Positions 22,837-46,056 are shown, counted from the stretch's first letter. The stretch is DNA of 64,000 nucleotides from an uncultured delta proteobacterium (GCA_963727625.1 CAVSHR010000005.1:960001-1024000), one strand, 5' to 3'. Program-made: numbers and translations. The notes: generated by a model from the letters alone, not told the origin.

Positions 22837-23131
22837 GCCGTTCTCCTCCGTCGAAATGGATCGTCAACTTCTTCTTCTGCGATTTCAGTTTTCTTTTTTC
22901 GCAAGCAGTCAGTTTAGAAATACTCCACACCGTGTCGGATCATAGACGAATCCGCCCCCTTCGCGCAAGGCCGGAAGCGAAAAAAGCCGTGTAAATTCAA
23001 TAAGTTATATTATGTATGGAATTTTGATACTTTAACGATCGCAGCTGGCCAGGCGCGGCGGGAATTCTTACCGGAAGAAATGGAATGGATTGTCGCCCGA
23101 CGCCAAAACGCGGGCAGAAGAAAATCGAGGG

Positions 23132-24316: not shown

Positions 24317-24369
24317 ATTCGATTCACCATTCCGATATTTTACGCCGAGAGCCCGTCGACGCTTGCTAG

Positions 24370-29307: not shown

Positions 29308-29313
29308 ATCACC

Positions 29314-30426
29314 ATGGATCTCAAGGTGACCGACCTTAGAAAGGCTTTTCATGCCCAAGCCGGAGAAGTCCAAGCCGTGCACGGGGTTTCGTTCGATGTT
29401 CCCAGAGGCACTTTTTTCACTTTGCTTGGGCCGAGCGGTAGCGGGAAAACAACCATTTTGCGCTGCATCGGCGGCCTGGAAATGCCGGATAGCGGCGAGA
29501 TTCGTCTGGGCGAAAAAATTTACTATTCCGATCAGCAGCGAATCGGGCTGATGCCCGAGGAGCGCGGCATCGGCATGGTGTTTCAATCCTACGCCATCTG
29601 GCCGCACATGACGGTTTTTAGCAACGTGGCTTTTCCGTTACGCTTCGGGCTAAAGCGCGTGCCCGCCGCCGAAATCACGACCCGGGTCGGACGGGTTCTC
29701 GACCTGGTTCAAATGGAGGGCTTGTCCTCACGCATGGCAACTCAGCTTTCCGGCGGCCAGCAGCAGCGGGTGGCTCTCGCCCGAGCGCTGGTTTCGGAGC
29801 CGGATTTGCTCCTGCTCGACGAACCGTTGTCTAATCTGGACGCCAAACTGCGCGAAGAGATGCGCGTGGAAATTCGCCGGATTCAGAAAACGCTCGGGCT
29901 TACGACGATCTACGTGACGCACGACCAAGCCGAGGCGCTTTCGATGTCCGATCAGATCGCGCTGTTGCGCAGCGGCAATATTGTTCAAGTCGGGGGTCCG
30001 AGAGAGCTGTACGAAAAACCCAACAACATGTTTGCGAGCGGATTCATCGGAACCAGCAACCAGCTTCCCGGAACCGTCGCCGGCCTTGTCTCACCGGGCG
30101 CGATGGGAAGCGTTTTTATTGCGGGAAAACCGCTCGCGTGCATTATCGTTGAGGGGTGCCCTCGACAAGGGCCCGTAATCGTCAGCATACGCCCGGAGGA
30201 CATCGAGGTGAGCGCTAACGGCGCGAACGAACCGGCGACCTGGAAGGGAATCGTGCGGCAGGTGGTTTATTTCGGCGACAGCATGAACTGCGAAATCGAT
30301 TTCGCGGGCACGGTGCTCCGGGCGCGACTGCACCCCTCCACCATCCTCGAGGACGGCCAGGAAGTGACGCTCAACTTCAAGGCCGGACGTTGCGTCGCCT
30401 TTCCCCAAGAATCGGCAAGCCGATAG
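29314..30426 (+). CDS. ABC transporter ATP-binding protein (FbpC/PotA-like)
   Basis: GPSGSGKT, LSGGQQQR, LLLDEP, C-terminal TOBE-like region. Confidence 0.95.
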   Translation: MDLKVTDLRKAFHAQAGEVQAVHGVSFDVPRGTFFTLLGPSGSGKTTILRCIGGLEMPDSGEIRLGEKIYYSDQQRIGLMPEERGIGMVFQSYAIWPHMTVFSNVAFPLRFGLKRVPAAEITTRVGRVLDLVQMEGLSSRMATQLSGGQQQRVALARALVSEPDLLLLDEPLSNLDAKLREEMRVEIRRIQKTLGLTTIYVTHDQAEALSMSDQIALLRSGNIVQVGGPRELYEKPNNMFASGFIGTSNQLPGTVAGLVSPGAMGSVFIAGKPLACIIVEGCPRQGPVIVSIRPEDIEVSANGANEPATWKGIVRQVVYFGDSMNCEIDFAGTVLRARLHPSTILEDGQEVTLNFKAGRCVAFPQESASR

Positions 30427-30456
30427 TTTCAGCGTTGCGCCGACGCCATGGCGGCA

Positions 30457-31482
30457 TTACTTTTTCGGTAACAACACTTCCCTGAGTTTTGCCACCACCG
30501 CCGGTTGTAAGTCGTAGAGACCGCCGAGTTTCTTGGCGATCGTTGGTCCGTTGATGACTTCGATTTCGAGCTTCGACTTCTTGGCTTCCGCCAGAAACTC
30601 CGGATCCTTCATCGTATCCACGAAGGCTTTTTGTAAAAGCTCAAGCCGGTCTTTGGCCATCCCGGGCGGCACTGTATAGGGGAACTGCGCCCCATGGGCG
30701 CTGTCGGCGACGTTGATGAGCTGGCGAGCGAAATCCGTCTTGGCGTAATCGACGGCCAGCGGAACTTTCTTATACTTTGGCTGGGATTGCAGACTCGCCT
30801 GGAGCACCGCGCGGATCTTTCCGCTTTGGTAAGCGTTGCGCCACACCGTTTCCACCGTCTGCCACGAACCGCAATAGCCGTCGACCTCTGCGGACTCCAC
30901 CGCGAGGCGCGCGCCCGCGCCGCCCTTGTAGCCGTCCAGGACATTAATCGGCAAATTGAGGGCGACCTTGAGAAGCTTGGGAATATCCGAGGTGCTGGTG
31001 CCGGGGCCGATGGCCGATATTTTCATCGGCCGCTTCGAGTTGATCCAGTCGTTCATGTTGGCTATGCCGCTTTTTTCATTAAACATGCACACCGTGTCGT
31101 AGGGACTCGGCACGCCGAGGTAGCCAAATTTACGACCATCGAATTTCGTTGCTTGATTGCCCATGACGTTTTGCAGCACCAATGGCGCCGCCCAGGCGCC
31201 GATGGTCAGACCGTCCGGCGCGGCCCGATTGTATAAATGATTTGCGGCGATAATCCCGCCGGCTCCGGTCATATTTTCCACGATGGTCGTCGGATTGCCC
31301 GCCACATGCTTGGAAAAATGGCGCGCGATGGTTCGGGTATAAAGATCGAAGGAGCCTCCGGCCGAATAACCGACGATGAACTTGATCGTTTTATCTTTAA
31401 AAAACTCCTGTGCTCGCGCCTGCGATAGCAAGCCAACGGCAAGTCCGAGCGCGAGCGTCAAAATGAATTTTAATTTTCGCAT
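30457..31482 (-). CDS. Tripartite tricarboxylate transporter substrate-binding protein (TctC/Bug)
   Basis: Signal peptide; IVGYSAGGSFD..R, VENMTGAGG, APDGLTI, GYKGG. Confidence 0.9.
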   Translation of the reverse strand: MRKLKFILTLALGLAVGLLSQARAQEFFKDKTIKFIVGYSAGGSFDLYTRTIARHFSKHVAGNPTTIVENMTGAGGIIAANHLYNRAAPDGLTIGAWAAPLVLQNVMGNQATKFDGRKFGYLGVPSPYDTVCMFNEKSGIANMNDWINSKRPMKISAIGPGTSTSDIPKLLKVALNLPINVLDGYKGGAGARLAVESAEVDGYCGSWQTVETVWRNAYQSGKIRAVLQASLQSQPKYKKVPLAVDYAKTDFARQLINVADSAHGAQFPYTVPPGMAKDRLELLQKAFVDTMKDPEFLAEAKKSKLEIEVINGPTIAKKLGGLYDLQPAVVAKLREVLLPKK

Positions 31483-31528
31483 CCTGTCAACTCCATTTCT
31501 TGCGCGTTTGTGGCTGCTGGCCTGATTT

Positions 31529-32131
31529 TTATCCGCGACCGACAAAAGGATTCGTCTTCTTTTCCGTCCGCTCCAAATACCTCACAAAGGTGTATTTATT
31601 TTCCGCGAGATCGGTGTTGGGCCGGGGAATCTCCCGGTGCAGCAAACTCTCTTCGACCTTGCAAACCAAGAAGGCGAGTTCATTTTGCGACAGCGCCTCG
31701 ATCCCCTTGTTTTTGAAGTCGTTGATTTCGCGGATTGTATGCGCGTTGACGATTCCCGCGCCGTGCGCCATCGCGACCAAATCCGTATTTCCCGCTGTGG
31801 CCGTCGGGTAGCTGATCCGGCTGCCGCTGTAGACGCCGTTGTCAAAGACATAAACGACCAAATTCTTCGGTCGCAAATTGCCCAGCGTCGCGAGATTGAA
31901 GAGCGAGAGCAACACACTGCCGTCGGAATCCAGCGCGATCACTTTGCGGTGCGGCAAAGCCAAGGCCAATCCCGTCGCCACACCGATGGCACAGCCCATC
32001 ATGCCGACCAACAGATTGCCTTCATGCTGCGACAGGTGGGACCACTCGATGCGTTGACCGCTCTGTGAAGTGACGACCAGCTGGTTGGTCATATTCGCCG
32101 CCAGCAACTCGAGGCATTCATGACGGATCAT
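31529..32131 (-). CDS. TPP-binding decarboxylase beta subunit (ComE/phosphonopyruvate decarboxylase-like) #1
   Basis: GMMG.A..A.GLALA, DSDGS.LL...VFDN..Y. Confidence 0.85.
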   Translation of the reverse strand: MIRHECLELLAANMTNQLVVTSQSGQRIEWSHLSQHEGNLLVGMMGCAIGVATGLALALPHRKVIALDSDGSVLLSLFNLATLGNLRPKNLVVYVFDNGVYSGSRISYPTATAGNTDLVAMAHGAGIVNAHTIREINDFKNKGIEALSQNELAFLVCKVEESLLHREIPRPNTDLAENKYTFVRYLERTEKKTNPFVGRG

Positions 32132-32634
32132 ACCGAAAACTCCCCGGCGAAAAGCAGCGCGTAAGGCGCGCGCAAAGCGTTGGCCGCCCGCACCGCGTCT
32201 TGGATTTTGCCTTCGAGGCGCGCGCCGTCTTCGAGCACCCGGTGTTCGATGCCGAGACCGTTCAGCACGGGAATCGTGTGGTTACCGATGGTGGCGTAGA
32301 GAAAACTGTTGCGCTGGTCGGGTACGCCGCCGAGATAACCGATGACGAGAAGAATCGGCACGCCGAGCTGTTTGCCGGTCACCAGCAAACTGTAGCTCGA
32401 CACGTAAATGCCGGTGTTTTCCATGTAAACAGCCGCCTGCTTGCCGCCCAGCGTGGCGCCCGCGGCGATGGTCACGGCTTCTTGCTCGCTGGCGGCGGCG
32501 ATCAGTTCCATGTCGGGATCATCGCGTATAAGCGGCACGATCTGACTCAGCCGGGTTTCCGGCAAGTAAGTCACGAAATTGATCCCGGCGTCTTTCAGAC
32601 CTTGGACCAATCTTTTCGCGAGTTCGTCTTTCAT
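32128..32634 (-). CDS. Decarboxylase alpha subunit (ComD-like PYR domain) #1
   Basis: LKDAGINFVTYLP, SEQEAVTIAAGA.LGGK, YMENTG; 4-bp overlap with the beta gene. Confidence 0.85.
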   Translation of the reverse strand: MKDELAKRLVQGLKDAGINFVTYLPETRLSQIVPLIRDDPDMELIAAASEQEAVTIAAGATLGGKQAAVYMENTGIYVSSYSLLVTGKQLGVPILLVIGYLGGVPDQRNSFLYATIGNHTIPVLNGLGIEHRVLEDGARLEGKIQDAVRAANALRAPYALLFAGEFSV

Positions 32635-32772
32635 GAATAATGAACTGCATTAGCAGAGACAGGAATGACTGGCAACGGGAAAAATACCCAAGGCCCGTTC
32701 CAATCGTTTAATCGCTTCGCTCCATTCGAGTCGTTTCGAAATAAATGCCCATGCCGGAAGCCCGACACTTCA

Positions 32773-35031
32773 TTACTCCGATTGCTCGCGTATCGCCCGC
32801 AGGATCTTCTCCGCCGTAATCGGCAAATCGAAAATCCGCACACCGACGGCGTCCGCTACCGCGTTGGCGATCGCCGCCGCGGTGGGAACGACGGGCGGCT
32901 CGCCGATACTCATGCCGCCGTACGGTCCGTTGCCCACCGGAAATTCCTGAATCACCGTTCTCAGAGTTGGAATATCCCGAATCGAAGGAATCTTATTCTC
33001 GCCGAAATGGGTCGTGATAACCTTGCCGCCGTCGATCACGACGCCTTCCATCATCGCGAAGCCGATGCCCATGACGACTCCGCCGTCGATTTGGCCTTGA
33101 TGCATAAGCGGATTGAGCACCGTTCCCGTGCTGTGCGCACTCGTGAACCGGTTGAGCTTCAACTGACCGGTCTCGACATCCACCTCCACCTCCGCCACCT
33201 GCACGCAAAGCGCCGCTTCCGGGCCGGATTCGAAGTTCTTGTAAAAGCCATGACCGCGAATCGCCTCTCCGTTGGCTTCCACTATCTCGCCGTAGGCTAT
33301 GTTCTTGCCGGCCGGCGTTCGCAGCCGGCCGTCGCCCGTCAATGACAGCAGCTCCTTGGCAATTCCCAATGACCGACCGGCAGCGTCCAGCAATTGCTCT
33401 TTCGCTTGGATTGCCGCCAGCCGTGTGGCGTTGCCGAAAATGCGCGTCCCCCGGCTCGCGCCGATGCCGGTGTCGGGTCCAACCCGGCTCGTATCCAATG
33501 TCTCGATGCGAATCTGCTGCAGCGAAACTTTCAGCTCTTCAGCCGCGACCAGCCGCATCGCCGTGTGCGTGCCCGCGCCCTGATCGAGCATCGCCGTAGA
33601 GACCGAGATGATCCCAGCTCCGTCGATCGTCACGAAGGCGTGGCATTCACCTCCCAACGGCAGCCATTGGGCGATCGCCGCCCCGCGCCCGGTATGTTTT
33701 CGCTTCGGTCGCCGGTAGCCGGAGCGCTCGAGCGCGCCGTCGAGAATTTCGTCGCTCTTGATATGCGGCACCTTGTGGCCGATTGGCGAGACATCGCCGT
33801 CACGCATCAGATTCTTTTTCCGAAACGCGATCGGGTCCATGGCCAATCGGCGCGCGATCAAGTCCATCTGCGACTCATTGGCGAAAAAACCCTGCGGGTC
33901 GCCCGGCGCCCGCATGTGGCCGCAAGGAATCTTGTTGGTGTAGACGATTTTCTCTTCGATATAGACGTTGGGGATATTATACGGCCCGGCGGCTTCTTTC
34001 GGACCGACCAAATAACCCTGGGGCTTGAACGCGCCGTAAGCGCCGCTGTCGAAAACATACTCCATTTGATGGGCCACGAGCCGGCCGTCTTTTTTAACGC
34101 CGCTTTTCACCCGCACGATCGCGGCGTGGCGCGGATTGCCGGCGACAAACTCTTCGGCATAGTCCATCACCATTTTCACCGGCCTGCCGCTCTTGAGCGA
34201 CAGGAGATAACAAATCGGCACGTCCATGAAGTCGCCCTTGCCGCCGAAGCAGCCGCCGATGAAAACCGGCCGGACGATAAAATCTTCGGTGTTTTTTCGG
34301 AATGCCGTGGCCATCTGCTCGCGCAGGGCGAAGGGGACCTTAGAGCAAGCCCAAATGTCGCTGGCGCTGCCGTCGCGCGCCTGCACGACGCAGGCATGCG
34401 GCTCGATGTAAGCTTGATGGACCGGTTGGGTCGTAAACATGTTTTCCACGATCAGATCGGCTTCGCGGAGTCCTGACTCGACATCGCCTTTGCGCCAATG
34501 CATGTTAACGAACACGTTGGTCGGCGCGTCGATCGGATGGAGCAGTCCGCGATAGCTTTGCACCCCGGGATGGAGCTGCGCGGCCGAAGGCTTGACCGCC
34601 TCGAGCGGGTCGAGCAACGCCGGCATTTCCTCATACTCGACCTCGATCAGACCCAGCGCTTCTTCAGCGATCGCCTCGCTCTCCGCCGCCACCGCCGCGA
34701 CTTTTTCGCCGATAAACCGAACCACGCCGTCGGCCAGAATCGGCATGTCGTAGATTTTCCGCCCGATCAAAAGGCCTTTGACGTCTTCTCCGGTCGCAAC
34801 GGCATGCACGCCGGGCAATTCCAGCGCGTGGACCGCGTCGATCTTTTTGATCCGCCCGTAGGAGATCGGACTGCGCAGAACTTTGCACCGGAGCATGCCC
34901 GGCAAGTCGACATCGGCGGCATAGATCGCCCCCCCCGAAACCTTTTCGGGGCCTTCCAGCCGCTGCGTCGGCGTGCCGATGATCTTTCTCGGCGCCGTTT
35001 TAGGGCGCGCCCGGGCGACTTTTTTTTTCAC
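32773..35031 (-). CDS. Xanthine dehydrogenase-family molybdopterin-binding large subunit
   Basis: KVSG.A.YAAD, HQAYIEP, GGCFGGK, MRAPG, GQIDGG, GEPP. Confidence 0.93.
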   Translation of the reverse strand: MKKKVARARPKTAPRKIIGTPTQRLEGPEKVSGGAIYAADVDLPGMLRCKVLRSPISYGRIKKIDAVHALELPGVHAVATGEDVKGLLIGRKIYDMPILADGVVRFIGEKVAAVAAESEAIAEEALGLIEVEYEEMPALLDPLEAVKPSAAQLHPGVQSYRGLLHPIDAPTNVFVNMHWRKGDVESGLREADLIVENMFTTQPVHQAYIEPHACVVQARDGSASDIWACSKVPFALREQMATAFRKNTEDFIVRPVFIGGCFGGKGDFMDVPICYLLSLKSGRPVKMVMDYAEEFVAGNPRHAAIVRVKSGVKKDGRLVAHQMEYVFDSGAYGAFKPQGYLVGPKEAAGPYNIPNVYIEEKIVYTNKIPCGHMRAPGDPQGFFANESQMDLIARRLAMDPIAFRKKNLMRDGDVSPIGHKVPHIKSDEILDGALERSGYRRPKRKHTGRGAAIAQWLPLGGECHAFVTIDGAGIISVSTAMLDQGAGTHTAMRLVAAEELKVSLQQIRIETLDTSRVGPDTGIGASRGTRIFGNATRLAAIQAKEQLLDAAGRSLGIAKELLSLTGDGRLRTPAGKNIAYGEIVEANGEAIRGHGFYKNFESGPEAALCVQVAEVEVDVETGQLKLNRFTSAHSTGTVLNPLMHQGQIDGGVVMGIGFAMMEGVVIDGGKVITTHFGENKIPSIRDIPTLRTVIQEFPVGNGPYGGMSIGEPPVVPTAAAIANAVADAVGVRIFDLPITAEKILRAIREQSE

Positions 35032-35035
35032 TTCA

Positions 35036-35803
35036 CTACTTTCCCGATGAAGGCTTGCCGGCAGCGGCGAAAGCGGCTTGCAAGCACACGCCGTGCAAGT
35101 CGACGGCGGTCAAGCCACAATATTCCAAACTGTAGCCGGGCCGCGCTTGCGCCATGCCGTCTTCCAAGAGTGTTTTAAAGACCAAGCGGCGAAAACTCCC
35201 ATGACCCATCACGCCGGCGTGCTCTTTGAGATCCGCCTCTTCGTGCGTGGAAAAATACACCGCTTGCTCGCGCGTGAGGCCATAATGGGTCGTCAGGGCC
35301 TTGTAGAAATCCGCGGACCAGTAGCCTGTCTGCTCTTCGGTAGCGCCGGCGGCATAGAATTCCGCCATGGTCCCTTCCCACAAAAGCGATCTTTTGAAAT
35401 CGAGCTTGGCGCGAAACTCGGCCAACATCGGCGCCAGAAAAATATCATCCTCGGCGATGCCCAGGGCCTTCGCCGTTTCCACCACCACATGCACATGACC
35501 CGGCGGCTCGGGGTGAATCAGTTCGTCGGCGAGCTTTTCCGCCATGCGCGCCATGAGGTCGCGATGTTTGCGAAAAAACGAAATATGCTTATGGTACGAC
35601 GCCGCCTCCACCGTGTTGATCTCTATGGTATAAGAGCCCCAGTTTTTGAAAAATGTCCGAAGCGCCTCTACCGGCAGCGTGCCGGCTCTCAACTGTTGCA
35701 TGAAGGGTGAATCGGTGACGCGCGCGCGCCATCGCGCGGCGACTTTCCGATAGTGCTCGTCGACGTATTCGCCGGCGCGATCGTTTCCCTTGGTTCCGGT
35801 CAT
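35036..35803 (-). CDS. Heme-oxygenase-like diiron enzyme (PqqC/CADD/TenA superfamily)
   Basis: Helical; DEL...GH, ATEEQ, YFSTHEEAD..H. Confidence 0.75.
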   Translation of the reverse strand: MTGTKGNDRAGEYVDEHYRKVAARWRARVTDSPFMQQLRAGTLPVEALRTFFKNWGSYTIEINTVEAASYHKHISFFRKHRDLMARMAEKLADELIHPEPPGHVHVVVETAKALGIAEDDIFLAPMLAEFRAKLDFKRSLLWEGTMAEFYAAGATEEQTGYWSADFYKALTTHYGLTREQAVYFSTHEEADLKEHAGVMGHGSFRRLVFKTLLEDGMAQARPGYSLEYCGLTAVDLHGVCLQAAFAAAGKPSSGK

Positions 35804-35833
35804 GGATCTCTCCCTTTGCGCTAGATGGTTCGA

Positions 35834-36433
35834 TCAGCCGCGGCCGCGGAAGATCGGTTTGCCTTCGCTTCGCTCGAGATAACGGACAAACTGATACTTG
35901 TTCTCCATCGGATCCAGATCGGTGCGCGTGATCTCCCGGTGGGCGACGCTCTCCTCGACCTTGCAGACGATAAATTTGAGCTGAGCCCCGTTCAGCGCCG
36001 TGTCCAGCTCCCGTTGGAAAGTTTCAAGATCGCGCACGGTCGCGGCCTGCTCGATTCCCGCCCCTCGCGCCATCATCGCTAAATCGGTTTTGCCCGCCGT
36101 CGCCGTCGGTTCGCTGATCCGCGTGCCACTGTACGCCTGGTTGTCGAAAACCAAGACGATCAAGTTTTTTGGATCGAGATTAGCCAGCGTCGCGAGATTG
36201 AACAGCGAGAGCAGCACACTGCCGTCCGATTCCAAGACGATGACCTTGCGCCGGGGCAAGCCAATGGCCAGGCCTATCCCTACGCCGAGCGCCGTTCCCA
36301 TAGTGCCGACCAAGAGATTGCCCGGGTGTTGCGATAAACTCGCCCACTCGATTTTCTGTCCGCTGAGCGAAGTGACGACGAGCTGGTCGGTAATCCGCGG
36401 CGCGAGCCGCGTCAAGCAGTCATAGCGGATCAT
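35834..36433 (-). CDS. ComE-like TPP-binding subunit #2
   Basis: Start MIRYDCL at 36433; GTMG, ESDGS...FDNQAYSGT. Confidence 0.85.
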   Translation of the reverse strand: MIRYDCLTRLAPRITDQLVVTSLSGQKIEWASLSQHPGNLLVGTMGTALGVGIGLAIGLPRRKVIVLESDGSVLLSLFNLATLANLDPKNLIVLVFDNQAYSGTRISEPTATAGKTDLAMMARGAGIEQAATVRDLETFQRELDTALNGAQLKFIVCKVEESVAHREITRTDLDPMENKYQFVRYLERSEGKPIFRGRG

Positions 36434-36936
36434 CGGGTGAAGTCTCCGGTAAACACCAGCGCCACGGGCAGTTTGAGGGCGTGCATGTGGCGCACCGCGT
36501 CCTGGATCTCGGGCTCGAGGCGCTCGCCGCTCTTGATAATCCGAAATTGAATCTGCAAAGCCTCCAACAAAGGCTCGACGTATGTTCCAGACACCGCATA
36601 AACTGAATTGTTCCTTTGATCGGCCATGCTGCCGAGGTAAGCGACCACGAGCAGCAAAGGCACACCGTAGCGCCTGGCGATGGATACTAGCGTGTAGCAC
36701 GAGACGTAGAGCCCGGTGCATTCCATGTAAATCGCAACCTGCTTGCCGGCCAACGCCGCGCCTGCGCCGATCGTGACTGCCTCCGATTCGCTGGCGACGG
36801 GCACCAGTGTAAACGATGGCTCGCTGCGCAAGAGCGGTAAAATCTGGCTGAGCCGGGTCTCCGGCAAATAGGTAACGAGATCGATGCCCGCTTGCTTCAG
36901 GCCACCGACCAATCTTTGAGCCAACTCTGCTTCCAT
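36430..36936 (-). CDS. ComD-like subunit #2
   Basis: TYLPETRL, SESEAV, YMECTG. Confidence 0.85.
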   Translation of the reverse strand: MEAELAQRLVGGLKQAGIDLVTYLPETRLSQILPLLRSEPSFTLVPVASESEAVTIGAGAALAGKQVAIYMECTGLYVSCYTLVSIARRYGVPLLLVVAYLGSMADQRNNSVYAVSGTYVEPLLEALQIQFRIIKSGERLEPEIQDAVRHMHALKLPVALVFTGDFTR

Positions 36937-36993
36937 CGATATCACCCAGGCAACGAAATTATCCGAGCCGTCGATGGCGAAAGGAGCCCATCG

Positions 36994-37983
36994 TCATTTT
37001 ATCCCCAACTCCTGATTCACTTCCCGCTGCAGAGAGAAATCGAAAATTTTGGATGCCGCAGCGGGTTCTTTCAACTTCAATAGTTCGGCATCGGCTTTGA
37101 GAAACTCCTCAATTTCCTTTTGTGAGGGAATTCCATCTGCCGTGAACGCCGGTTTGGCCAGCCGATAAGACTCCAGTGCAACAGCAATGTCGACGTGCTG
37201 ATATTTCGCCAGAACTTCGCTCGTGCCGCGTTCGTTTTCCCAGAAATAACGGTTCGCCTTTGCGCGCGCGCGGAGAATACGCTTCAAAAGGTCTCTGTTC
37301 TCGCGTAGAAATTTCTCGGTCACGGCCGTTCCATTCTGCAGGTTGGAAAGATCGTCCATGGCCGAGCCGAGAATGTTCAGCTTGAATTTATCGCGTGCCA
37401 AGATGACCGTCGGCGGCGAAAGGGCCGCCACGTCGATGACTCCGCTGACCAGGCTTTGCAGCTGCGCCGGGACGTCCCCACCCACCACCACGGTGAGATC
37501 CTTATCCGGATCGACGCCGCCTCTGCGAATCAGACGGGTGGCGGCCGTGTGCTGCGAGCCGCCGAAGGTTGTCGTACCCAGGATCTTGCCCTTCAGCTGG
37601 GAAATCGCAGTTATTTTTTTCCTGGCGACCAGCCAAAACAAGTTGCGCTTCAGACTTACCGTGAGCACCTTGAGGGGGATATCGCTACGCTCCAACGCGC
37701 GAATGACGGTTCCGATCCCGTTGGTGGCCTGCACCTGGCCGCTCAGCGCCGCTGCGATCGCCACGTTGCCGCGGATTTGCACGATATCGGCAACAAGCCC
37801 TTCATCGCGAAAGAAGCCTCGCTCCTTGGCGACGTAAAGGTCGATGGCGGCGATGCTCCGGCTGGGAATCGAGAAAACTATCTTTTCATAGGTTTGGCCC
37901 CAAAGCGGCTGGATCCACAACCAAGAAACCATAAAGGCCGGCACGATACCCCACCGGCTGAAACTGCTGCTCGTTGTTCTCAT
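36994..37983 (-). CDS. NMT1/SsuA-type substrate-binding protein
   Basis: Signal-like N-terminus; VAKERGFFRDEGL, QLKGK.LG, GVDPDKDL. Confidence 0.85.
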   Translation of the reverse strand: MRTTSSSFSRWGIVPAFMVSWLWIQPLWGQTYEKIVFSIPSRSIAAIDLYVAKERGFFRDEGLVADIVQIRGNVAIAAALSGQVQATNGIGTVIRALERSDIPLKVLTVSLKRNLFWLVARKKITAISQLKGKILGTTTFGGSQHTAATRLIRRGGVDPDKDLTVVVGGDVPAQLQSLVSGVIDVAALSPPTVILARDKFKLNILGSAMDDLSNLQNGTAVTEKFLRENRDLLKRILRARAKANRYFWENERGTSEVLAKYQHVDIAVALESYRLAKPAFTADGIPSQKEIEEFLKADAELLKLKEPAAASKIFDFSLQREVNQELGIK

Positions 37984-38164
37984 ATTCGTTCCGTTCTTTG
38001 ATCTTGCCGCTACAGGCGGCACCCAAGGATTCCCGCTTGACGGCGTCACGAACCGGCTAAAAACGGTTCCCATCCAGCGTTTCCGGCTCCGTTGTCCACC
38101 GACGTTTTCCCTAAAATAGTCGTTCGCCCTAAGCACCATTTTCGCCACTTGAGCATCCTTCCGG

Positions 38165-39133
38165 CTATTTCGGGGTTTCGCCCATCTCTTTTAGGACTTC
38201 CCGAGCGATGCTCAAATCAAAAACCTCGCTCAGCGGCACGTCTCTTTCAAGGTTGATATTTAACTTGGTGCTCTGGATCACTTTTTCCAAGATTTTATTC
38301 GACACTATAAGATTTCGGCTAAAGTTGCCCACCGTCGCATCGTAGGCCTGCGCGGCGGCTTTCGGGTTTGTCCGGCCCCACTTTGCGAGGATCTCGATCG
38401 CGCCCTTGCGATCCCCGATAATGAAGCGATTGGCCTTCAGGAGCGCGCGAAGAACTTTTTTAACTTCAGCCCGCTGGTTTTTAAGCTTTTGCTCGTGTAC
38501 TCCGACGCCGTTGACCGGGAAAATTAAAATATCGCGCACGTGGACCAAAGATTTGAAACCCAGGCTTTCCGCTTTGATATCCGCCGGCGGGGAAATGAAA
38601 CAAGCGTCGACCAAACCGGATTGCAATTGCGCGACCCGGCCGGAACTGCTCCCCGCCGCAACGAACTGCACGTCGGTATTCGGATCTAAATTAAAGTGCT
38701 CGGTCGTTAAGCGCGCTAAAATATCGGTAAGCGATCCAAACGAGCTAACCGCTATCTTTTTTCCTCTAAGATCCGAATATTTTTTGATTCTAGGATTAAC
38801 CACGGCAACGTGATTGGGCCTATCGATAAGAATGCCGGCCACTTTGATCGGAAGCCCTCTTAGATTGCCCGTCACGATGGATTGTAAAATCAAGTTGTAG
38901 TCGATGTTGCCGGCGGCGAGAGCGGCGATGGAAACGTTGGCGTTCATCTGAATGAGCTCGGCGTCCAACCCTTCCTCTTTAAAGAATCCTTTGAATTTGG
39001 CCACCCCCCCGCTAAGAAACGACATGTCGGGATTCGATATTGCGATGCGTATTTTCTGTGCTTCGGCGACGCCCAGCGAAAAGACGATTGTCAAAGCCGT
39101 TACAAAGGACGTTAATTTGATTCTCCTCACCAT
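38165..39133 (-). CDS. NMT1/SsuA-type substrate-binding protein
   Basis: Signal peptide ending AEA; KGFFKEEGLDAE, DLRGKKIAVS. Confidence 0.88.
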   Translation of the reverse strand: MVRRIKLTSFVTALTIVFSLGVAEAQKIRIAISNPDMSFLSGGVAKFKGFFKEEGLDAELIQMNANVSIAALAAGNIDYNLILQSIVTGNLRGLPIKVAGILIDRPNHVAVVNPRIKKYSDLRGKKIAVSSFGSLTDILARLTTEHFNLDPNTDVQFVAAGSSSGRVAQLQSGLVDACFISPPADIKAESLGFKSLVHVRDILIFPVNGVGVHEQKLKNQRAEVKKVLRALLKANRFIIGDRKGAIEILAKWGRTNPKAAAQAYDATVGNFSRNLIVSNKILEKVIQSTKLNINLERDVPLSEVFDLSIAREVLKEMGETPK

Positions 39134-39158
39134 TTTTTCTGCGCTCCTTTCTGAAAAG

Positions 39159-39671
39159 TCATTCCGCTTCGGTAAATTCTCCGGTAAATAGCAGCGCGAC
39201 CGGTTGCTTTAAAGCATGCATGGCGCGCATGGCGTTTTTGATTTTGGCCATAATGTTTCGGCCGTCTTTCAAGACGCGATGCTGGATCCCCAAAGCCTCC
39301 AGCTGGGGTATCATGCGCGCGCCGTATTGAGAATAGAGAAACGTGCTTCTTTGATCCTCCAAGCTGCCTATATAACTCACGATCAAGAGCATCGGGACGC
39401 CATAGCGAATGCCGACCGTCAAGAGGCTATAGGCAGAGACAAAAAGGCCCGTGCCTTCCATGTAAACCGCCGCCTGTTTGCCACCAAGGGCAGCCCCTGC
39501 AGCGACTCCCACCGCCTCGGCTTCGCTCGCGACCGGCGCCAACGTGAAAGACTCGTCGGCTGCCATCAGCGGGAGAATCCCGCTCAAGCGGGTCTCGGGA
39601 ACGTACGCGACAAAATTGATGCCTGCGTCCCTTAAGGCTTTGACTAAGCTATCCGCGAGTTGTGGGGTCAT
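39159..39671 (-). CDS. ComD-like subunit #3 (no beta gene directly downstream)
   Basis: YVPETRL, SEAEAV, YMEGTG. Confidence 0.85.
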   Translation of the reverse strand: MTPQLADSLVKALRDAGINFVAYVPETRLSGILPLMAADESFTLAPVASEAEAVGVAAGAALGGKQAAVYMEGTGLFVSAYSLLTVGIRYGVPMLLIVSYIGSLEDQRSTFLYSQYGARMIPQLEALGIQHRVLKDGRNIMAKIKNAMRAMHALKQPVALLFTGEFTEAE

Positions 39672-39811
39672 GCTCCTCTTTTCAGAACTTGGCGTGCTTT
39701 GCGCGTATCGTCGCTTTTCAAAATTCGTAATCCAAGTTTCAACTGCAAATCATATTCCCAGCTAGCTTTTCATTTTCGCCATGAACGGCAGAAACGCCTG
39801 GCTCGGTTTAC

Positions 39812-40411
39812 CTATCCGCGCCCATGAAATATTGACTTGCCTTCAGTCCGTTCCAGGTACCGCGCAAACCGGTACTTCGTTTCCAATAAATCTACATTGC
39901 TCCTGGTGATCTTGCGGTGGCCGACGCTCTCTTCGATCTTGCAGACCACGAAGCGCAGGCCGTTTTCGTTGAGCGCCGCGGTCGCCTCACGCTTGAAGTC
40001 AGCCAGCTCGGACACCGTTACCGAATGCTCGATACCCGATCCTCTGGCCACCGCCGCCAGGTCGGTTTTCCCTGCCGTCGCGCTCGGATAGCTGATTCTC
40101 GTGCCGCTGTAGGCTTGGTTATCGAAAACAAAGACGGCCAGGTTGGACGGATCAAGATTGGCCAGCGTGGGCAAATTGAATAAAGAGAGCAAAACGCTGC
40201 CGTCGGACTCAAAGACAAAAACCTTCCGGTGCGGCAAAGCGAGCGCGAGGCCGATCCCCACGGCGAGCGCATTGCCCATGGAGCCGAGATTCAAATCCGC
40301 CTCCCGCTTGGAGAGATGTCCCCACTCCACCCGCTGCCCGCTCAGCGAGGTAACAACGATCTGGTCGGTCATTTGCGGCGCCAGCCATTCAAAACAATCG
40401 TAACGAATCAT
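39812..40411 (-). CDS. ComE-like TPP-binding subunit #3
   Basis: LGSMG, ESDGS...FDNQAYSGT. Confidence 0.85.
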   Translation of the reverse strand: MIRYDCFEWLAPQMTDQIVVTSLSGQRVEWGHLSKREADLNLGSMGNALAVGIGLALALPHRKVFVFESDGSVLLSLFNLPTLANLDPSNLAVFVFDNQAYSGTRISYPSATAGKTDLAAVARGSGIEHSVTVSELADFKREATAALNENGLRFVVCKIEESVGHRKITRSNVDLLETKYRFARYLERTEGKSIFHGRG

Positions 40412-40914
40412 AGGGTAAAATCCTCCGTGAATAGCAGCGCAAACGGCTGTTTGAGCGCGTTCATCGTGCGCACCGCGTTTTTGATTTTCCGATCGAGGCC
40501 GTCGCCGTTACGGATAACCTGATATTGAACGTCCAGCGCTTCGAGCTGAGGGATCAACTTGATGCCGCGCTGGACATAAAGAAAGCTGTTTCGATGATCT
40601 TCAAAACTGCCGACGTAACTCACCAATAAAAGCATCGGAACGCCGTAGCGCACGCCGACGGTCAGAATATTGTAACAAGACACGTAAACACCGGTTCCCT
40701 CCATGTAGCTCGCGACATTCTTTCCACCCAGCGCGGCTCCCGCGGCGATCGACACACCTTCGGCCTCGCTGCCGACGGGCACCAACTGAAAAGAATGATC
40801 GGCATGCATGACCGGCAAAATTTGACTCAGCCGGGTCTCGGGCAAATAAGTGACAAAATTTACGCCCGCTTCCCGCAACGCGTGCACCAGACCTTGCGCA
40901 AGGGCGTTATCCAT
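40408..40914 (-). CDS. ComD-like subunit #4
   Basis: TYLPETRL, SEAEGV, YMEGTG. Confidence 0.85.
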   Translation of the reverse strand: MDNALAQGLVHALREAGVNFVTYLPETRLSQILPVMHADHSFQLVPVGSEAEGVSIAAGAALGGKNVASYMEGTGVYVSCYNILTVGVRYGVPMLLLVSYVGSFEDHRNSFLYVQRGIKLIPQLEALDVQYQVIRNGDGLDRKIKNAVRTMNALKQPFALLFTEDFTL

Positions 40915-40916
40915 TT

Positions 40917-41921
40917 CTATCTGACCTTTCCTTTATAGAGAGCGTCGATGTAACCGCTGTCGTCGAGCTCCTTGATAAAACGCGCATCGACAAAATCCTG
41001 CGGACGCGCTGCTTTGGCCTTGGGATTGTCATTGGCAATGGCGTCGAGCACGGTCTGAATCCCGGTCAGGGTCGGATACTGTTTGCGCGGATACTTTTGA
41101 TCGGTCGCCGAAAGCTCGTAACTTTTTTCCAGGATGTCCCGGTCTTTTGTCCGCCGCAGATACTTCGCCAGCACCGCCACGCTAGTCTTGCGGTCGGTTT
41201 TCATGAGATGCACCGCCTCGACCTGCGATTTGACATATCGCTTCACCGTGTCCCTGTTGTCCCGGATATAATGGCGCGAGGTGGCGATGCCATTGTGCAG
41301 AAACGGCAAGCCTAGGGCGCCGACATCCGCCAGCTGGTGAAAGCCTTCCCTTTCCGCGACGATACTGGTCGGAGGACTGAGAAGGGTTGCTTGCAATTGC
41401 TTGTTACGAAGAGCGATGAGCCGTTCCGGCGTCCCGCCCACCACGATGTATTTGACGTCCCTCGGCTTCAAGCCGAGTTTCTCCAGGGCGAATTCCGTGG
41501 CCACCAGCGACGCGCCGCGAATCGAGGCGAGCCCGATGATACCGCCTCGGAGCCGCTCCGGCGTTTTAATTTCCGGTTGGCTTAGGAAAATAAAATCCAG
41601 CGTCGCCATGCCGCCGGCCACATAAGCCAGATCCGACCCCCTGAGGCCGCTCTCGATCACCGTCGGGCCCGAAGCCTGAATGAAATCGAGATCGCCCGAC
41701 AGCAAGGCCAGTACGCCGATGGTGCTGCGCGTCCGCACCAGCTCCGCTTCCAATCCGTTTCGAGCAAATATTCCGGCGTCTTTTGCCAACCAGGTTGCCA
41801 GAGAGCCCGGCGCGTCGGAGCTGTAGCCGACCCTGATTTTCTTAGACTGAGCCCATGAGCCGGCGGGACACAAAACGCCGGTTAGGAAGAACAGCGAGAT
41901 CAATACATTGGCTAGGATCAC
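40917..41921 (-). CDS. NMT1/SsuA-type substrate-binding protein
   Basis: Signal peptide; KIRVGY, AKDAGIFARNGL, YPTLTGIQTVL, ELDDSGYI. Confidence 0.88.
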   Translation of the reverse strand: MILANVLISLFFLTGVLCPAGSWAQSKKIRVGYSSDAPGSLATWLAKDAGIFARNGLEAELVRTRSTIGVLALLSGDLDFIQASGPTVIESGLRGSDLAYVAGGMATLDFIFLSQPEIKTPERLRGGIIGLASIRGASLVATEFALEKLGLKPRDVKYIVVGGTPERLIALRNKQLQATLLSPPTSIVAEREGFHQLADVGALGLPFLHNGIATSRHYIRDNRDTVKRYVKSQVEAVHLMKTDRKTSVAVLAKYLRRTKDRDILEKSYELSATDQKYPRKQYPTLTGIQTVLDAIANDNPKAKAARPQDFVDARFIKELDDSGYIDALYKGKVR

Positions 41922-41986
41922 CTGATGAAGCCTCCTTGGTGCTACTGTGGCACTGCTACGGGCAACGCCACCGTTAATAATTTGGG

Positions 41987-43645
41987 CTAATCGTTTTTCT
42001 TGTCTACTTGCTTCTTGAGCTTCTCAAGCTCATCGGCGAGATACTTCTTCTTGAGGTCCATGAATTTAGCTCCCCGAGGCACTTTGATCCCCTTGCGGGC
42101 GCTAAATTCAGCGTTGAGGCTATGATTTCCCGCCACCGCGTTGTCGGCCTGAATGACCGCTTCATTGGGCCACATGCCGAGCGAATAGCCCCACCACGGC
42201 GGGCGCGGATTCAATTTCGGCAACTCAAGCTCCTCCCAGATCTCCCGCGCCCGTTCCATATACGGCCGTTTCGGCAGAGCAACCGGCGGAAATTCCGCCT
42301 TCAAAGTCGCGTCCACCAGCAACGTTGAATCGGTCACGTCATAGTGCTCGCCGTCGGCGACGTAGCGAATCGGATTCCAAGGGAGCGGCCGGTTGGGCAC
42401 AATTCTCATGTCCCGATGGGGCTGGCACCGGTTGGCCATCGCCCATAAGAGCGACTGCGCATCGTGCGGGTCGATGTCTTCGTCGACGCAAACGATGATC
42501 TTGTGAATGACCCGCGACGGCAGCAGCCCTTCGAGCGCGCGCCAGGTGTCATCCGGTTTTTGTTTTTTGAGCTGGATCACCGCTACCTGCCGGTTGAGCA
42601 GGTCTTCGTAAAGCGCGACTCGCCGCGCGTCGACTCCGACATCTTTGATCAAATGATTTAGCGCGAGAGTTTCGTAAGCGGACTGTTTGATCTTGCTCGA
42701 CTCGCTCGGGGTGAGCTGGCTGATCATCGAAACGTAAATGGGATTTTTTCGGTGCGTGATACAAGTCACTTCAAAAACCCCGTTTAAATCCCCTGGATCG
42801 AGATAGCCGTGCGCTTCGCCGAAGGGACCGTCGGGCTCCAAATAGTCCCAAGGAATTTTACCTTCGATGACGATATCCGCGTGGGCCGGGACTTCGAGAT
42901 TCACCGTCTTGCAGCGGACCATTTCCAGAGGACCACGCGCCAAACCGCCAGCCAGCGCAATTTCGTCGACGCCGTAGGGCACCGGCTGAACCGCCGCATA
43001 GGTGATGCAAGGCGGGCCGCCGATGACGATAGCCGCGTCCAGAGGAATGCCTCGTTCGTTGCATTTCTCCCAGTGGATCGCCGTGTGTTTGAGGCTGCCC
43101 CACATGATCCCGGTCTTGAGCGGGCCCTTAATCTGCCCGCGGTAAACTCCCATGTTTCTAACCCCGGTGTCAGGATCTTTGGTGATCCAGCAGCCGGCGG
43201 TCAAATAAGGCGCATTGTCGAAGCCGGGCGTGGAGATGGGAATCGGCAATTTGTATAACCCGCCGGAACGGATCAGCTCGTCGCCTTGATAGACGACTTC
43301 CTGAACCGGCCCTTCTTTGACCAGAATCGGATCGATCGGGCGTTCCAGAGCTTTGGTCCAAATCTCTTCCACCTCTTCTTCTTTGCACATCAGACCGAGC
43401 GCATAGATTCGCTGTGAAGCCGCCAATCCGCCGATTAGCACGGGGATGTCGTATTTTTTGCCCTTGGCGTCGTGGATATCCTCGAAAAAAAATGCTCGCC
43501 GTTGCGCCTCGTCCAGGCCGCGAAATTGCCAGCGCACCAACGGGTGCATCTCGGTGTCTTTGTCGATCGGTCGCGTGACTCGGAAGAGCAAGCCCTCCTG
43601 CTCGAGAGCTTGCAAATATTCACGAAGGTTCTTGTAATAAACCAT
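41987..43645 (-). CDS. UbiD-family (prFMN-dependent) decarboxylase #1
   Basis: NLREYL..LE, RNMGVYR, ADIVIEG, DGPFGEAHGY, VDEDIDP. Confidence 0.92.
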   Translation of the reverse strand: MVYYKNLREYLQALEQEGLLFRVTRPIDKDTEMHPLVRWQFRGLDEAQRRAFFFEDIHDAKGKKYDIPVLIGGLAASQRIYALGLMCKEEEVEEIWTKALERPIDPILVKEGPVQEVVYQGDELIRSGGLYKLPIPISTPGFDNAPYLTAGCWITKDPDTGVRNMGVYRGQIKGPLKTGIMWGSLKHTAIHWEKCNERGIPLDAAIVIGGPPCITYAAVQPVPYGVDEIALAGGLARGPLEMVRCKTVNLEVPAHADIVIEGKIPWDYLEPDGPFGEAHGYLDPGDLNGVFEVTCITHRKNPIYVSMISQLTPSESSKIKQSAYETLALNHLIKDVGVDARRVALYEDLLNRQVAVIQLKKQKPDDTWRALEGLLPSRVIHKIIVCVDEDIDPHDAQSLLWAMANRCQPHRDMRIVPNRPLPWNPIRYVADGEHYDVTDSTLLVDATLKAEFPPVALPKRPYMERAREIWEELELPKLNPRPPWWGYSLGMWPNEAVIQADNAVAGNHSLNAEFSARKGIKVPRGAKFMDLKKKYLADELEKLKKQVDKKND

Positions 43646-43712
43646 TAATAATTTCCCTCGATGTGGCGGTTAAAAATCCGTCCTTAGGGGTTGCGCTCAT
43701 TTTGCACCGTTA

Positions 43713-44603
43713 TTACTGCCCAAGAATCCCCGCGTCCCTCAGCTCGCGCTCCAACTTGGTGATTTCCTCTGTGGGCATCTGCTCGGTCTCCCACTTGGGA
43801 AATCGTTTCACCGCGAAACCGCGCATGCGGAAAACCTCTTGCAACGGCACCCGGCCATATTGACGCAGGCGGGCCGCGACGATCCGCGCCGCTGCATCGA
43901 CACGCTTTTGCGCCTCCACCGCGCGCGCGTAATCTTTGCTGTCCAATGCGTTGAACAGATCTACGCAGAGTTCGGGAACAAAACTGGTCGGCGGATTGAT
44001 CATGCCGGCGACGCCGAACGGCACCAGGCCGAACAAATCCGCGTTGCCGGTGAACACCGAAACATCGGGCAAGAGCCTGACGTACTCGAGCAGCGCGCCC
44101 TGGCCGTAGGCGACCTTGATACCTTTGAGCGCCGGCACCTGCTCTTTCATACGCACGGCCAAGCCCGGCGGAATCGAGATGCCGGAATATTTTGGATTCT
44201 CGTAGATGTAGATCGGCAGCGGCACCGCTTGATGTACGGCTCTGTAGTGGGCGATGATTTCATATTCCGTGTGATCGGAATAATAATACGGCGGCACGAT
44301 TGCCACCGCGTCGGCATTGTGCGCCGCCGCATGCTCCGCCAGCTCCACCGCGCTGCCGGTATCGGCGGTGCCGACGTGGATGATCACGGGCACGCGCGAT
44401 TTGGCCTGATCGAGCGCGATGGCGGCCGCTTGTTTACGCTCTTCGACAGTCATCGCCGGCCCCTGGCCGGTGGAGCCGAGAACGAATAGGCCCTGCACGC
44501 CGGCTTTGATGTGAAAGTCGACGAGTTGGCGCATCATTTGTTCATCGACGCGAACCTTCTCGTCGAACGGCGTAATAACCGGCAACAACACTCCGCGAAT
44601 CAT
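43713..44603 (-). CDS. DHDPS/N-acetylneuraminate lyase-family aldolase
   Basis: ITPFD, GSTGQ, PPYY, YENP, GIK Schiff-base lysine. Confidence 0.9.
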   Translation of the reverse strand: MIRGVLLPVITPFDEKVRVDEQMMRQLVDFHIKAGVQGLFVLGSTGQGPAMTVEERKQAAAIALDQAKSRVPVIIHVGTADTGSAVELAEHAAAHNADAVAIVPPYYYSDHTEYEIIAHYRAVHQAVPLPIYIYENPKYSGISIPPGLAVRMKEQVPALKGIKVAYGQGALLEYVRLLPDVSVFTGNADLFGLVPFGVAGMINPPTSFVPELCVDLFNALDSKDYARAVEAQKRVDAAARIVAARLRQYGRVPLQEVFRMRGFAVKRFPKWETEQMPTEEITKLERELRDAGILGQ

Positions 44604-44740
44604 CTTTGCCTCCCCATCATCGTGCTAATGACTTAGATCCTTCACTTCGTTCAGAATGGCACCCGATCCAAAGGTTACTCCGAAAAGCCAAGCGACGAAG
44701 CATCTACCCTCCTGTTAAATCTTTGGCCAAACTTCACGTC

Positions 44741-45979: not shown

Positions 45980-46012
45980 GGACCTTTTCCTCTCTTGCGC
46001 TCTTCTTACGGC

Positions 46013-46048
46013 TTGAACGATTTGAACGTCTTGAACTACTTGAACCGT
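46013..46048. repeat. Short tandem repeat, 4 x 9 bp (TTGAACnnn)
   Basis: ttgaacgat ttgaacgtc ttgaactac ttgaaccgt in the intergenic spacer. Confidence 0.8.
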
Positions 46049-46056
46049 TTCGTCGG

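Follow-up and report, generated by a model that had tools for sequence, protein, structure and literature searches.

Seven genes for probable two-subunit TPP-dependent enzymes

The DNA analysed here (the window) is a stretch of 64,000 nucleotides from an uncultured delta proteobacterium (GCA_963727625.1, CAVSHR010000005.1:960001-1024000), which carries on its minus strand, between positions 31529 and 40914, seven genes for the separate halves of predicted thiamine diphosphate (TPP)-dependent enzymes. Four are alpha genes with a TPP_enzyme_N domain (PF02776, 29.1-37.3 bits against a gathering score of 26.8) and three are beta genes with a TPP_enzyme_C domain (PF02775, 52.2-57.2 bits against 21.9). 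The original prediction, made from the sequence alone, had placed four alphas and three betas here, and both the Pfam matches and the translations bear this out.

The genes form three alpha/beta pairs and leave one alpha to spare. The PYR-domain subunit a1 (40408-40914, 168 amino acids (aa); PF02776 29.1 bits, TIGR03845 76.5 bits against 147.95) pairs with the PP-domain subunit b1 (39812-40411, 199 aa; PF02775 54.8 bits, TIGR03846 98.2 bits against 221.5), and is followed by the spare alpha, a2 (39159-39671, 170 aa, 33.4 bits). Further along lie a3 (36430-36945, 171 aa, 37.3 bits) with b3 (35834-36433, 199 aa, 57.2 bits) and a4 (32128-32634, 168 aa, 31.5 bits) with b4 (31529-32131, 200 aa, 52.2 bits). 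The mechanically called open reading frame (ORF) of b3 reaches 36721, and its start was set at 36433 from homology. All three alpha/beta junctions (a1/b1, a3/b3, and a4/b4) have an ATGA stop/start overlap. Within each type the seven genes share 51-68% identity, and this identity, together with the ATGA junctions and the recurrence of the same signature across a clade of relatives in other genomes, argues that the seven-gene pattern is not due to chance. As part of the overall explanation developed below, we predict with moderate confidence that the genes encode subunits of heteromeric TPP decarboxylases of the split group typified by ComDE and RhiEF.

A signature shared across a clade

Each motif listed in the original prediction can be read from the window translations. 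The betas contain FESDGS, LESDGS, or LDSDGS, followed by a loop with YSGTRIS (b1 and b3) or YSGSRIS (b4), and all three end in GRG. All four alphas contain PETRLS, together with SEAE (a1 and a2), SESE (a3), or SEQE (a4) and YMEGTG (a1 and a2), YMECTG (a3), or YMENTG (a4). The same features were counted over 75 loci, obtained from the best 80 of 259 encoding stretches that a clade alignment had found with one genome taken per species. Every one of the 93 clade betas (185-215 aa) has [DE]SDGS and YSG[ST]x[IM]S, and 76 of them end in GRG; PE[TS]RLS is found in all 99 clade alphas (150-185 aa) and YMExTG in 71, while the canonical REEEG and MQN motifs occur in none of the 99.

The SDG that stands in place of the usual GDG had been singled out as a mark of these genes, a claim that proved too narrow. 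Among 105 full-length betas (nine from the genome of the window and 96 representatives), the first motif position reads GDG in 65, SDG in 22, TDG in eight, ADG in six, and otherwise in four, so that serine, threonine, or alanine replaces the first glycine in 36 of these nearby betas, and the solved structure of AzcC has TDG. What sets the clade apart, across the sequences compared, is the joint presence of SDGS, YSG[ST]x[IM]S, and GRG at the C-terminus. [TC]REEEG and MQN[AG]G in the alpha and GDG in the beta are found in the six alpha/beta pairs that the genome has elsewhere, so the canonical motifs named for comparison (TREEEG, MQNxG, and GDG) do exist alongside, as they do in RhiE. This canonical set derives from the original prediction, RhiE, and the six pairs themselves, and is no curated definition of the ComDE family. 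Within the genome, PETRLS, SExE, YMExTG, and SDGS are confined to the window genes.

Several residues expected of a TPP enzyme are retained within this altered framework. The catalytic glutamate, Glu50 in a1 numbering, is invariant in the ten alphas of the genome and in all 12 clade alphas aligned, and it aligns to the glutamate of the RhiE motif RED. In the betas the aspartate and asparagine of the magnesium site (S-D-G ... D-N) are invariant in 14 of 14 sequences, and the position of the first glycine is serine in 93 of 93 clade members. Relative to the other pairs of the genome, the clade loop that follows D-N is one residue longer, has lost Y-E and G-G, and has gained an arginine, while the alphas have gained Arg28 within PETRLS. 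Judging from the structures of pyruvate and benzoylformate decarboxylases, the altered loop and Arg28 may lie in the substrate pocket.

Family membership and distribution

The curated families that match the window genes best are ComD, ComE, and phosphonopyruvate decarboxylase (Ppd), besides NF004813, whose model has no name other than "hypothetical protein". Scores fall well below the family cut-offs: 76.5-89.4 bits for the alphas against 147.95 for TIGR03845 (ComD), 83.5-103.1 bits for the betas against 221.5 for TIGR03846 (ComE), and 44.7-88.4 bits against 312.5 for TIGR03297 (Ppd). None of the nine split betas in the genome passes the ComE cut-off in a whole-genome scan (83-143 bits); five of the six betas outside the window score above all window betas on this model (113.5-142.9 bits against 83-104.5), and the sixth, at C5:841948, reaches 98.7. 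Likewise, none of the 95 nearest full-length betas reaches an NCBIfam cut-off, the best three attaining 166-169 bits on TIGR03846. Among 1.84 billion cluster representatives searched, b1 has 2568 relatives at E<=0.001, of which 53 reach E<=1e-30. Once six fragmentary or frameshifted representatives had been removed, a tree of 99 betas showed the clade of the window betas to be monophyletic with a support of 0.999. The sub-threshold family scores, the monophyly, and the conserved signature thus agree with the earlier suggestion of a separate subfamily, and the sequence comparisons support the view that the window genes belong to a distinct, unnamed, and uncharacterised group of split TPP enzymes.

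Close homologues come mostly from metagenome-assembled genomes (MAGs) whose records are titled Ca. Binatia or "delta proteobacterium", and a few clade members, 62-64% identical, are found in Chloroflexota, SAR202 and Dehalococcoidia among them. Of 101 genomes sampled at class level, 24 carry a beta at E<=1e-15, and clade-level matches (E<=1e-75) are restricted to the window's own family (five of six genomes, counting that of the window) and its sister family (six of six). Across 301 genomes sampled from the whole phylum, the sole match at E<=1e-55 is the genome of the window. Orthologues of a4/b4 are the most widespread of the clade, being present in all six sister-family genomes and in Chloroflexota. 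The DNA of 31529-40914 is represented at shares of at most 0.18 in soil, salt-marsh, and estuary metagenomes, and no RNA dataset was listed with the region.

The genome itself is 6.6 Mb in 15 contigs and 98% complete, and the contexts of its six alpha/beta pairs outside the window all differ, with no common partner. Other pairs were seen near CoxG and the FAD and 2Fe-2S subunits of a molybdenum (Mo) hydroxylase (L003:13144-15003) and near a Mo-hydroxylase large subunit and CoxG (L006:2435-6397). Longer forms also exist in the wider family (P0232, P0150, P0164, P0213, P0241, and P0267): one protein, of 393 aa, is an alpha-beta fusion whose beta part spans residues 200-390, and in several others, of 373-391 aa, the beta part comes first, so that they may be beta-alpha fusions. 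Four stretches of the genome (C5:72936-76542, C12:112293-113660, C4:296078-297754, and C12:169873-171420) give half-only or stop-bearing matches to the full-length TPP model and may be further split or broken TPP genes of another type.

The spare alpha subunit and the pairing of subunits

The spare alpha a2 starts 140 nt after b1 and has its own GAGGAG ribosome site. In 13 loci its orthologue comes after b1; six simpler loci (L056, L057, L060, L062, L063, and L066), and L030 as well, have the order a2, binding protein, b1-type beta. The ratio of nonsynonymous to synonymous substitution rates (dN/dS) is 0.142 for a2 (67 of 91 pairs from 14 sequences), compared to 0.158, 0.131, and 0.101 for the paired alphas a1, a3, and a4 and 0.042 for the b1 beta; these values come from pairs that are not independent and from the first 13 loci per group only. 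From these sequence data we conclude that a2, a conserved paralogue under purifying selection, is functional. Together with the binding-protein gene that follows it, a2 forms an odd module, with a GC content of 0.522 against 0.57-0.59 around it and an identity to L082 of 64-65% where the other genes there reach about 90%.

The alpha and beta trees agree in their orthogroups, and a1 is placed next to a2. Pairing therefore looks fixed by orthogroup, since the a2 orthologue has a b1-type beta in the simpler relatives, and if the ancestral partner of a2 was such a beta, then b1 probably serves both a1 and a2. The most likely partner of a2 is accordingly predicted to be b1, which may be the only beta, at most, to serve two alphas. 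Free mixing of all alphas with all betas into 12 combinations, as had been envisaged, is not favoured by the agreement of the trees or by the b1-type beta that accompanies the a2 orthologue elsewhere.

The surrounding sixteen-gene cluster

The seven genes belong to an array of 16 minus-strand genes that begins at 46753 and ends at 30457, with no gap longer than 140 nt. Its order is Rieske oxygenase, DHDPS lyase, UbiD, NMT1, a1, b1, a2, NMT1, NMT1, a3, b3, haem-oxygenase-like protein, Mo large subunit, a4, b4, and TctC. A scan of 30300-47000 for promoters and terminators gave counts that were not above those of shuffled controls.

The first gene of the array (44741-46753) is a 670-aa ORF for a Rieske oxygenase (PF00355); its real start probably lies some 250-290 codons later, because the Rieske domain is at residues 293-373, and its orthologues of about 400-424 aa adjoin a4/b4 in Chloroflexota. 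Next come a DHDPS/DapA-family lyase (43713-44603; PF00701, 160 bits), which is kept with the clade in both Binatia and Chloroflexota loci, and a UbiD-family (de)carboxylase (41987-43645; PF01977, 204.6 bits; TIGR00148, 271 bits and above its cut-off). Three NMT1-family binding proteins are interleaved with the split genes, namely a periplasmic one 2 nt upstream of a1 (40917-41921; PF13379 and PF09084, with an N-terminus that by eye resembles a signal peptide), one directly after a2 (38165-39133; PF09084, 70.5 bits), and one upstream of a3 (36994-38148; PF09084, 72.6 bits). After b3 lies a putative di-iron oxidase of 255 aa (35036-35803), a haem-oxygenase-like protein of the Haem_oxygenas_2/TenA/CADD type (PF14518 33.4 bits, PF03070 28.7 bits) with a weak PDB match to CADD/4-aminobenzoate synthase (E 3e-4); the order a3, b3, and this gene recurs in related loci. 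The next gene encodes the 752-aa large subunit of a Mo hydroxylase of the xanthine oxidase family (32773-35031; PF02738, PF20256, and PF01315), whose best PDB matches are the alpha subunit of 4-hydroxybenzoyl-CoA reductase, quinoline 2-oxidoreductase, 6-hydroxypseudooxynicotine dehydrogenase, and the aldehyde oxidoreductase of D. gigas. ORFs on the plus strand at 32665-35178 have no Pfam match and were set aside as shadows of the Mo-hydroxylase gene. The array ends after b4 in a TctC-type binding protein of the tripartite tricarboxylate transporter (30457-31545; PF03401, 45.3 bits), with the order a4, b4, TctC conserved. The original prediction had described these interleaved genes correctly as to family; its label "sulfonate-type" for the binding proteins was an over-reading, as their SsuA_fam scores of 39-70 bits stay well under the cut-off (163.5) and the genome contains about 121 such genes.

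Conservation of the gene context

The full order a1, b1, a2, two binding proteins, a3, b3, haem-oxygenase-like protein, Mo large subunit, a4, b4, TctC recurs in L033, L036, L042, and L082. Conservation of the surrounding cluster across MAGs makes a shared pathway likely, in line with what had been proposed for these neighbours. Neighbours within 5 kb of clade betas were counted by tblastn with the proteins of the window's genome, gene calls in the related loci resting on a codon-usage script and tblastn labels. An NMT1 binding protein is present at 52 of the 75 loci (15 of the 25 that have 5 kb on both sides), a Mo large subunit at 35 (11 of 25), UbiD at 23 (nine of 25), TctC at 19 (seven of 25), DHDPS at 19 (seven of 25), a Rieske protein at 18 (10 of 25), and the di-iron-like protein at 15 (three of 25). 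By simple arithmetic a random stretch of that size would be expected to hold a Mo subunit in about 5% of cases (26 copies) and an NMT1 gene in about 20% (about 121 copies).

The Mo neighbours fall into identity classes of 70-83%, 54-55%, 40-48%, and 32-36%, and different Mo paralogues have therefore been recruited. According to tblastn with the window proteins, the genome has about 121 NMT1-type genes, 47 Amidohydro_2, 40 UbiD, 26 TctC, 26 Mo large subunits, 13 CoxM-like and 13 CoxS-like genes, and 19 class II aldolases, and the ratio of two Mo large subunits to one electron-transfer subunit suggests that the small subunits are shared. In the sister family, whose genomes are about 4 Mb, the sole clade pair is of a4/b4 type and sits in a compact module of M20 peptidase, a4, b4, and RidA (L021, L023, L089, L100, L101, L105, and L106). 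Chloroflexota loci show the order amidase, a4, b4, Rieske, DHDPS, and SDR, a Mo subunit being encoded on the opposite strand; in L086 and L096 the amidase immediately precedes a4/b4, and about 6-7 kb upstream of the pair lies an FMN-dependent 2-hydroxyacid dehydrogenase, while L092 has the amidase only.

Other features of the window

There are four Rieske genes in the window (21670-24568, 44741-46753, and 49378-50658), three of which have LigXa_C; the one at 44741-46753 has the Rieske match only. A fifth Rieske gene with LigXa_C was seen beside another alpha/beta pair at L005:2829-4100. On the plus strand at 27544-30426, abutting the TctC gene, is an ABC importer made up of a 587-aa protein in which two permeases are fused and an ATPase that has a TOBE domain, and in the ORF at 26656-27495 near it no binding-protein family was recognised. 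DDE transposase genes are at 9954-10928 and 12642-14324. Beside them, an aminotransferase fragment of 124 aa (14334-14708) is probably an insertion-cut gene, because only Pfam positions 68-191 are matched. A 1371-aa protein with CARDB, CarboxypepD_reg, TIG, and RHS-repeat domains is encoded at 4239-8354, and a second CarboxypepD_reg protein at 52932-53705.

Structural models and comparison with known systems

AlphaFold2 models of b1 and a2 reached pLDDT values of 86.5 and 81.0. In Foldseek searches both models found RhiEF and AzcBC first (E 1e-10 to 1e-13, probability 1.00), a probability that many other TPP enzymes also reached. The top match was RhiF, followed by AzcC, for the b1 model and the AzcBC structure 9u8q for the a2 model (TM 0.84, rmsd 1.9, E 1.6e-13). 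The closest solved relatives are alpha/beta complexes, according to a review (PMC12141560).

The phosphonopyruvate decarboxylase RhiEF of B. subtilis (9iz3/9iz4) resembles the clade in its division into an alpha of about 170-180 aa and a beta of about 186-200 aa and is the best PDB match by sequence, with the catalytic glutamate aligned. However, identity is only 17-25%, and where RhiE/RhiF have PCS, RED, MQNSG, and GDG...HESTGG, the clade has PETRLS, SExE, YMExTG, and SDG...YSG[ST]RIS. ComDE, the sulfopyruvate decarboxylase of methanogens, is likewise a split alpha/beta TPP decarboxylase and the best curated family for the alphas, but its motifs are closer to those of the six other pairs of the genome than to those of the window genes. 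For AzcB/AzcC from a Streptomyces (9u8q/9u8r/9u8s), the function of a TPP-dependent alpha-imino acid decarboxylase is given by the title of PDB entry 9u8q alone, and a literature search found no paper for 9u8q or AzcB/AzcC. It too is split, has TDG in the beta, and has an alpha MENSG that is near YMExTG, but it differs from the clade in the loop after D-N and matches it in sequence at 26-38 bits. Benzoylformate decarboxylase is the next-best PDB family for the clade beta, and its loop after the Mg-binding asparagine aligns as Y-x-x-x-R; unlike the clade, it is a single chain of 528 aa with a middle domain, and the matches are weak (about 31-34 bits).

A further comparison is offered by LumK/LumL of Nocardioides simplex, a TPP-dependent enzyme of two subunits that decarboxylates a quinoxaline carboxylate in the breakdown of lumichrome (PMC12746152). 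The same paper gives the order of the route as amidases, LumK/LumL, a xanthine-oxidase-like enzyme, and a Rieske dioxygenase, and mentions two-subunit TPP decarboxylases as having been known until recently only from the synthesis of coenzyme M and rhizocticin (PMC12746152). As described there, LumK/LumL resembles what is predicted for the window enzymes in having two small TPP-binding subunits (a 1:1 complex) and a catabolic role, and the xanthine-oxidase-like and Rieske families that act after it also surround the window genes; LumJ, however, is a single three-domain protein of 140 kDa (PMC12746152), whereas only a large subunit is adjacent in the window. An amidase, a xanthine-oxidase-family enzyme, and a Rieske oxygenase all occur in the window and recur near clade pairs, a likeness to LumKL that is one of context only.

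A proposed role and its alternatives

The explanation that we favour, if by no wide measure of certainty, is that the proteins form heteromeric TPP enzymes which decarboxylate 2-oxo or 2-imino (hetero)aromatic carboxylates as part of a catabolic pathway, and that they are not sulfopyruvate or phosphonopyruvate decarboxylases; a substrate set that differs from that of the latter enzymes is plausible. Each alpha would supply the PYR domain with the catalytic Glu50 and each beta the diphosphate/Mg2+ site S-D-G ... D-N, with active sites at the alpha/beta interfaces by analogy with RhiEF. The pairs a1/b1, a3/b3, and a4/b4 would be fixed and translationally coupled, with b1 also serving a2. The acid, an aromatic or N-heteroaromatic one, would be imported by way of the neighbouring TctC and NMT1 binding proteins, and each enzyme would remove CO2 from a carboxylate that adjoins either C=O or the C=N of a ring. 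The resulting aldehyde or decarboxylated heterocycle could then be oxidised by the adjacent Mo hydroxylase, and the Rieske oxygenases, UbiD decarboxylases, and DHDPS-type lyase may carry out other steps of the pathway.

Two more specific versions of the chemistry can be set against each other. In one, a narrower form of the explanation just given, the enzymes would be of the LumKL/AzcBC type in the strict sense, acting on carboxylates next to a ring or cyclic C=N, after which the Mo hydroxylase would hydroxylate the freed carbon next to the nitrogen. The lum pathway uses the same enzyme set (PMC12746152), and genes for an amidase, a Mo large subunit, and four Rieske oxygenases are present in the window; 35 of the 75 loci have a Mo subunit within 5 kb, drawn from several paralogue classes, the gene after a4/b4 in the sister family encodes RidA, of the imine/enamine deaminase family, AzcBC ranks first among the Foldseek matches of the a2 model, and AzcC and this part of the tree share serine or threonine for the first glycine. 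We nevertheless hold this version as tentative, since the sequence link to AzcBC is weak and no better than that to RhiEF, the Mo enzyme scores equally against aldehyde oxidoreductases, and the same neighbours would suit an ordinary 2-oxoacid route. That route would make the pairs aryl-glyoxylate-type decarboxylases in a mandelate-like shortening of a side chain (amide to 2-hydroxyacid to 2-oxoacid to aldehyde to acid), with the Mo enzyme as the aldehyde oxidoreductase. Benzoylformate decarboxylases come next after RhiF for the beta profile (E about 2e-7), the clade loop Y-S-G-S-R aligns to their Y-G-A-L-R, and the Mo subunit has the aldehyde oxidoreductase of D. gigas as one of its best matches; moreover, amidase and FMN-dependent 2-hydroxyacid dehydrogenase families are present in the window (14774-16270 and 17346-18419), as they are around a4/b4 in L086 and L096 of the Chloroflexota. 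Yet the benzoylformate decarboxylase matches are weak and span the general TPP fold, the FMN dehydrogenase of the window is about 13 kb from the pairs and not adjacent, and no NAD-dependent aldehyde dehydrogenase or racemase was found among the window ORFs scanned, so we regard this route, too, as possible but doubtful. A still more detailed proposal, that the genes form a family of N-heteroaromatic or cyclic alpha-imino carboxylate decarboxylases, each with its own Mo-hydroxylase paralogue and binding protein and with b1 serving a1 and a2, seems to us unlikely in its entirety.

A use of TPP for some other reaction, as in a C-C lyase, a carboligase, or a diketone hydrolase, would fit the rebuilt loop after D-N with its extra residue and new arginine, and benzaldehyde lyases, 2-hydroxyacyl-CoA lyases, and acetolactate synthases are among the Foldseek neighbours; these, however, are lower-ranked matches of the general fold, and the characterised split members that we encountered (ComDE, RhiEF, LumKL, and AzcBC) are all decarboxylases, which leaves such a reaction improbable. 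Least credible of all, and in our estimate very improbable, are true sulfopyruvate or phosphonopyruvate decarboxylases used for sulfonates together with SsuA-like binding proteins. It is true that close homologues bear the source name "sulfopyruvate decarboxylase subunit beta", that the best NCBIfam matches are ComD, ComE, and Ppd, and that the binding proteins have weak SsuA_fam matches. But all scores lie far under the curated cut-offs, including those of the binding proteins, none of the 99 clade alphas keeps the canonical motifs, and one genome has nine to ten pairs. ComA (PF02679) has no match in the 98% complete genome, the best genome match to Xsc reaches 331.9 bits against a cut-off of 676.4, and neither family is among the window ORFs scanned; the best of five genome matches to PEP mutase (TIGR02320) scores 143.5 bits against 319.55, with none in the window. 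Literature searches found no paper linking Binatia or Binatota with sulfopyruvate or phosphonopyruvate and none on SAR202 with sulfopyruvate decarboxylase. Sulfonate and phosphonate roles thus appear unlikely from the gene content.

Several observations weigh against the favoured explanation of (hetero)aromatic carboxylate decarboxylases. TPP binding by betas in which the first glycine of GDG is replaced is inferred from relatives with serine, threonine, or alanine and from AzcC. By sequence the clade is not more similar to AzcBC than to RhiEF, PDB profile searches giving 1.7e-12 for RhiE against 8.7e-9 for AzcB with the alphas and 1.5e-9 for RhiF against 3.7e-6 for AzcC with the betas. The neighbouring families are hugely expanded in the genome, so that some adjacency is expected by chance, and the 75 loci are kin, so that the counts overstate their independence. 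Contexts differ between clade members, which makes one shared substrate unlikely. No small or FAD subunit stands beside the Mo large subunit at 32773-35031, and because its PDB relatives include both ring hydroxylases and an aldehyde oxidoreductase, it cannot decide between the routes; indeed, the PDB relatives of the Mo subunit, the di-iron-like protein, and the DHDPS-type lyase do not narrow the substrate.

Implications for Binatia and for split TPP enzymes

LumKL and AzcBC indicate that the split scaffold also handles heterocyclic and imino acids, the former according to a published description (PMC12746152) and the latter by PDB title. The clade of the window genes represents a third branch, conserved and with many members, whose putative active-site loops have been rebuilt; it is situated in catabolic clusters of abundant uncultured soil bacteria. 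The label "sulfopyruvate decarboxylase" that many of its members bear in public records is probably a mislabelling, one that would wrongly suggest sulfonate metabolism in genomes of Binatia and Chloroflexota.

Should the more detailed and unlikely proposal of N-heteroaromatic or cyclic alpha-imino carboxylate decarboxylases be true, the cluster would embody a modular sequence of uptake, decarboxylation, and hydroxylation of the freed carbon, and the combination of a1 or a2 with b1 would yield two specificities from one cofactor-binding subunit. Binatia and some SAR202 and Dehalococcoidia would then degrade carboxyl-rich aromatic and heterocyclic organic matter. More generally, the clade is a defined target for assays, with three pairs, a spare alpha, and binding proteins that could reveal the substrates, and its study could uncover new TPP chemistry and part of the degradation of recalcitrant organic acids.

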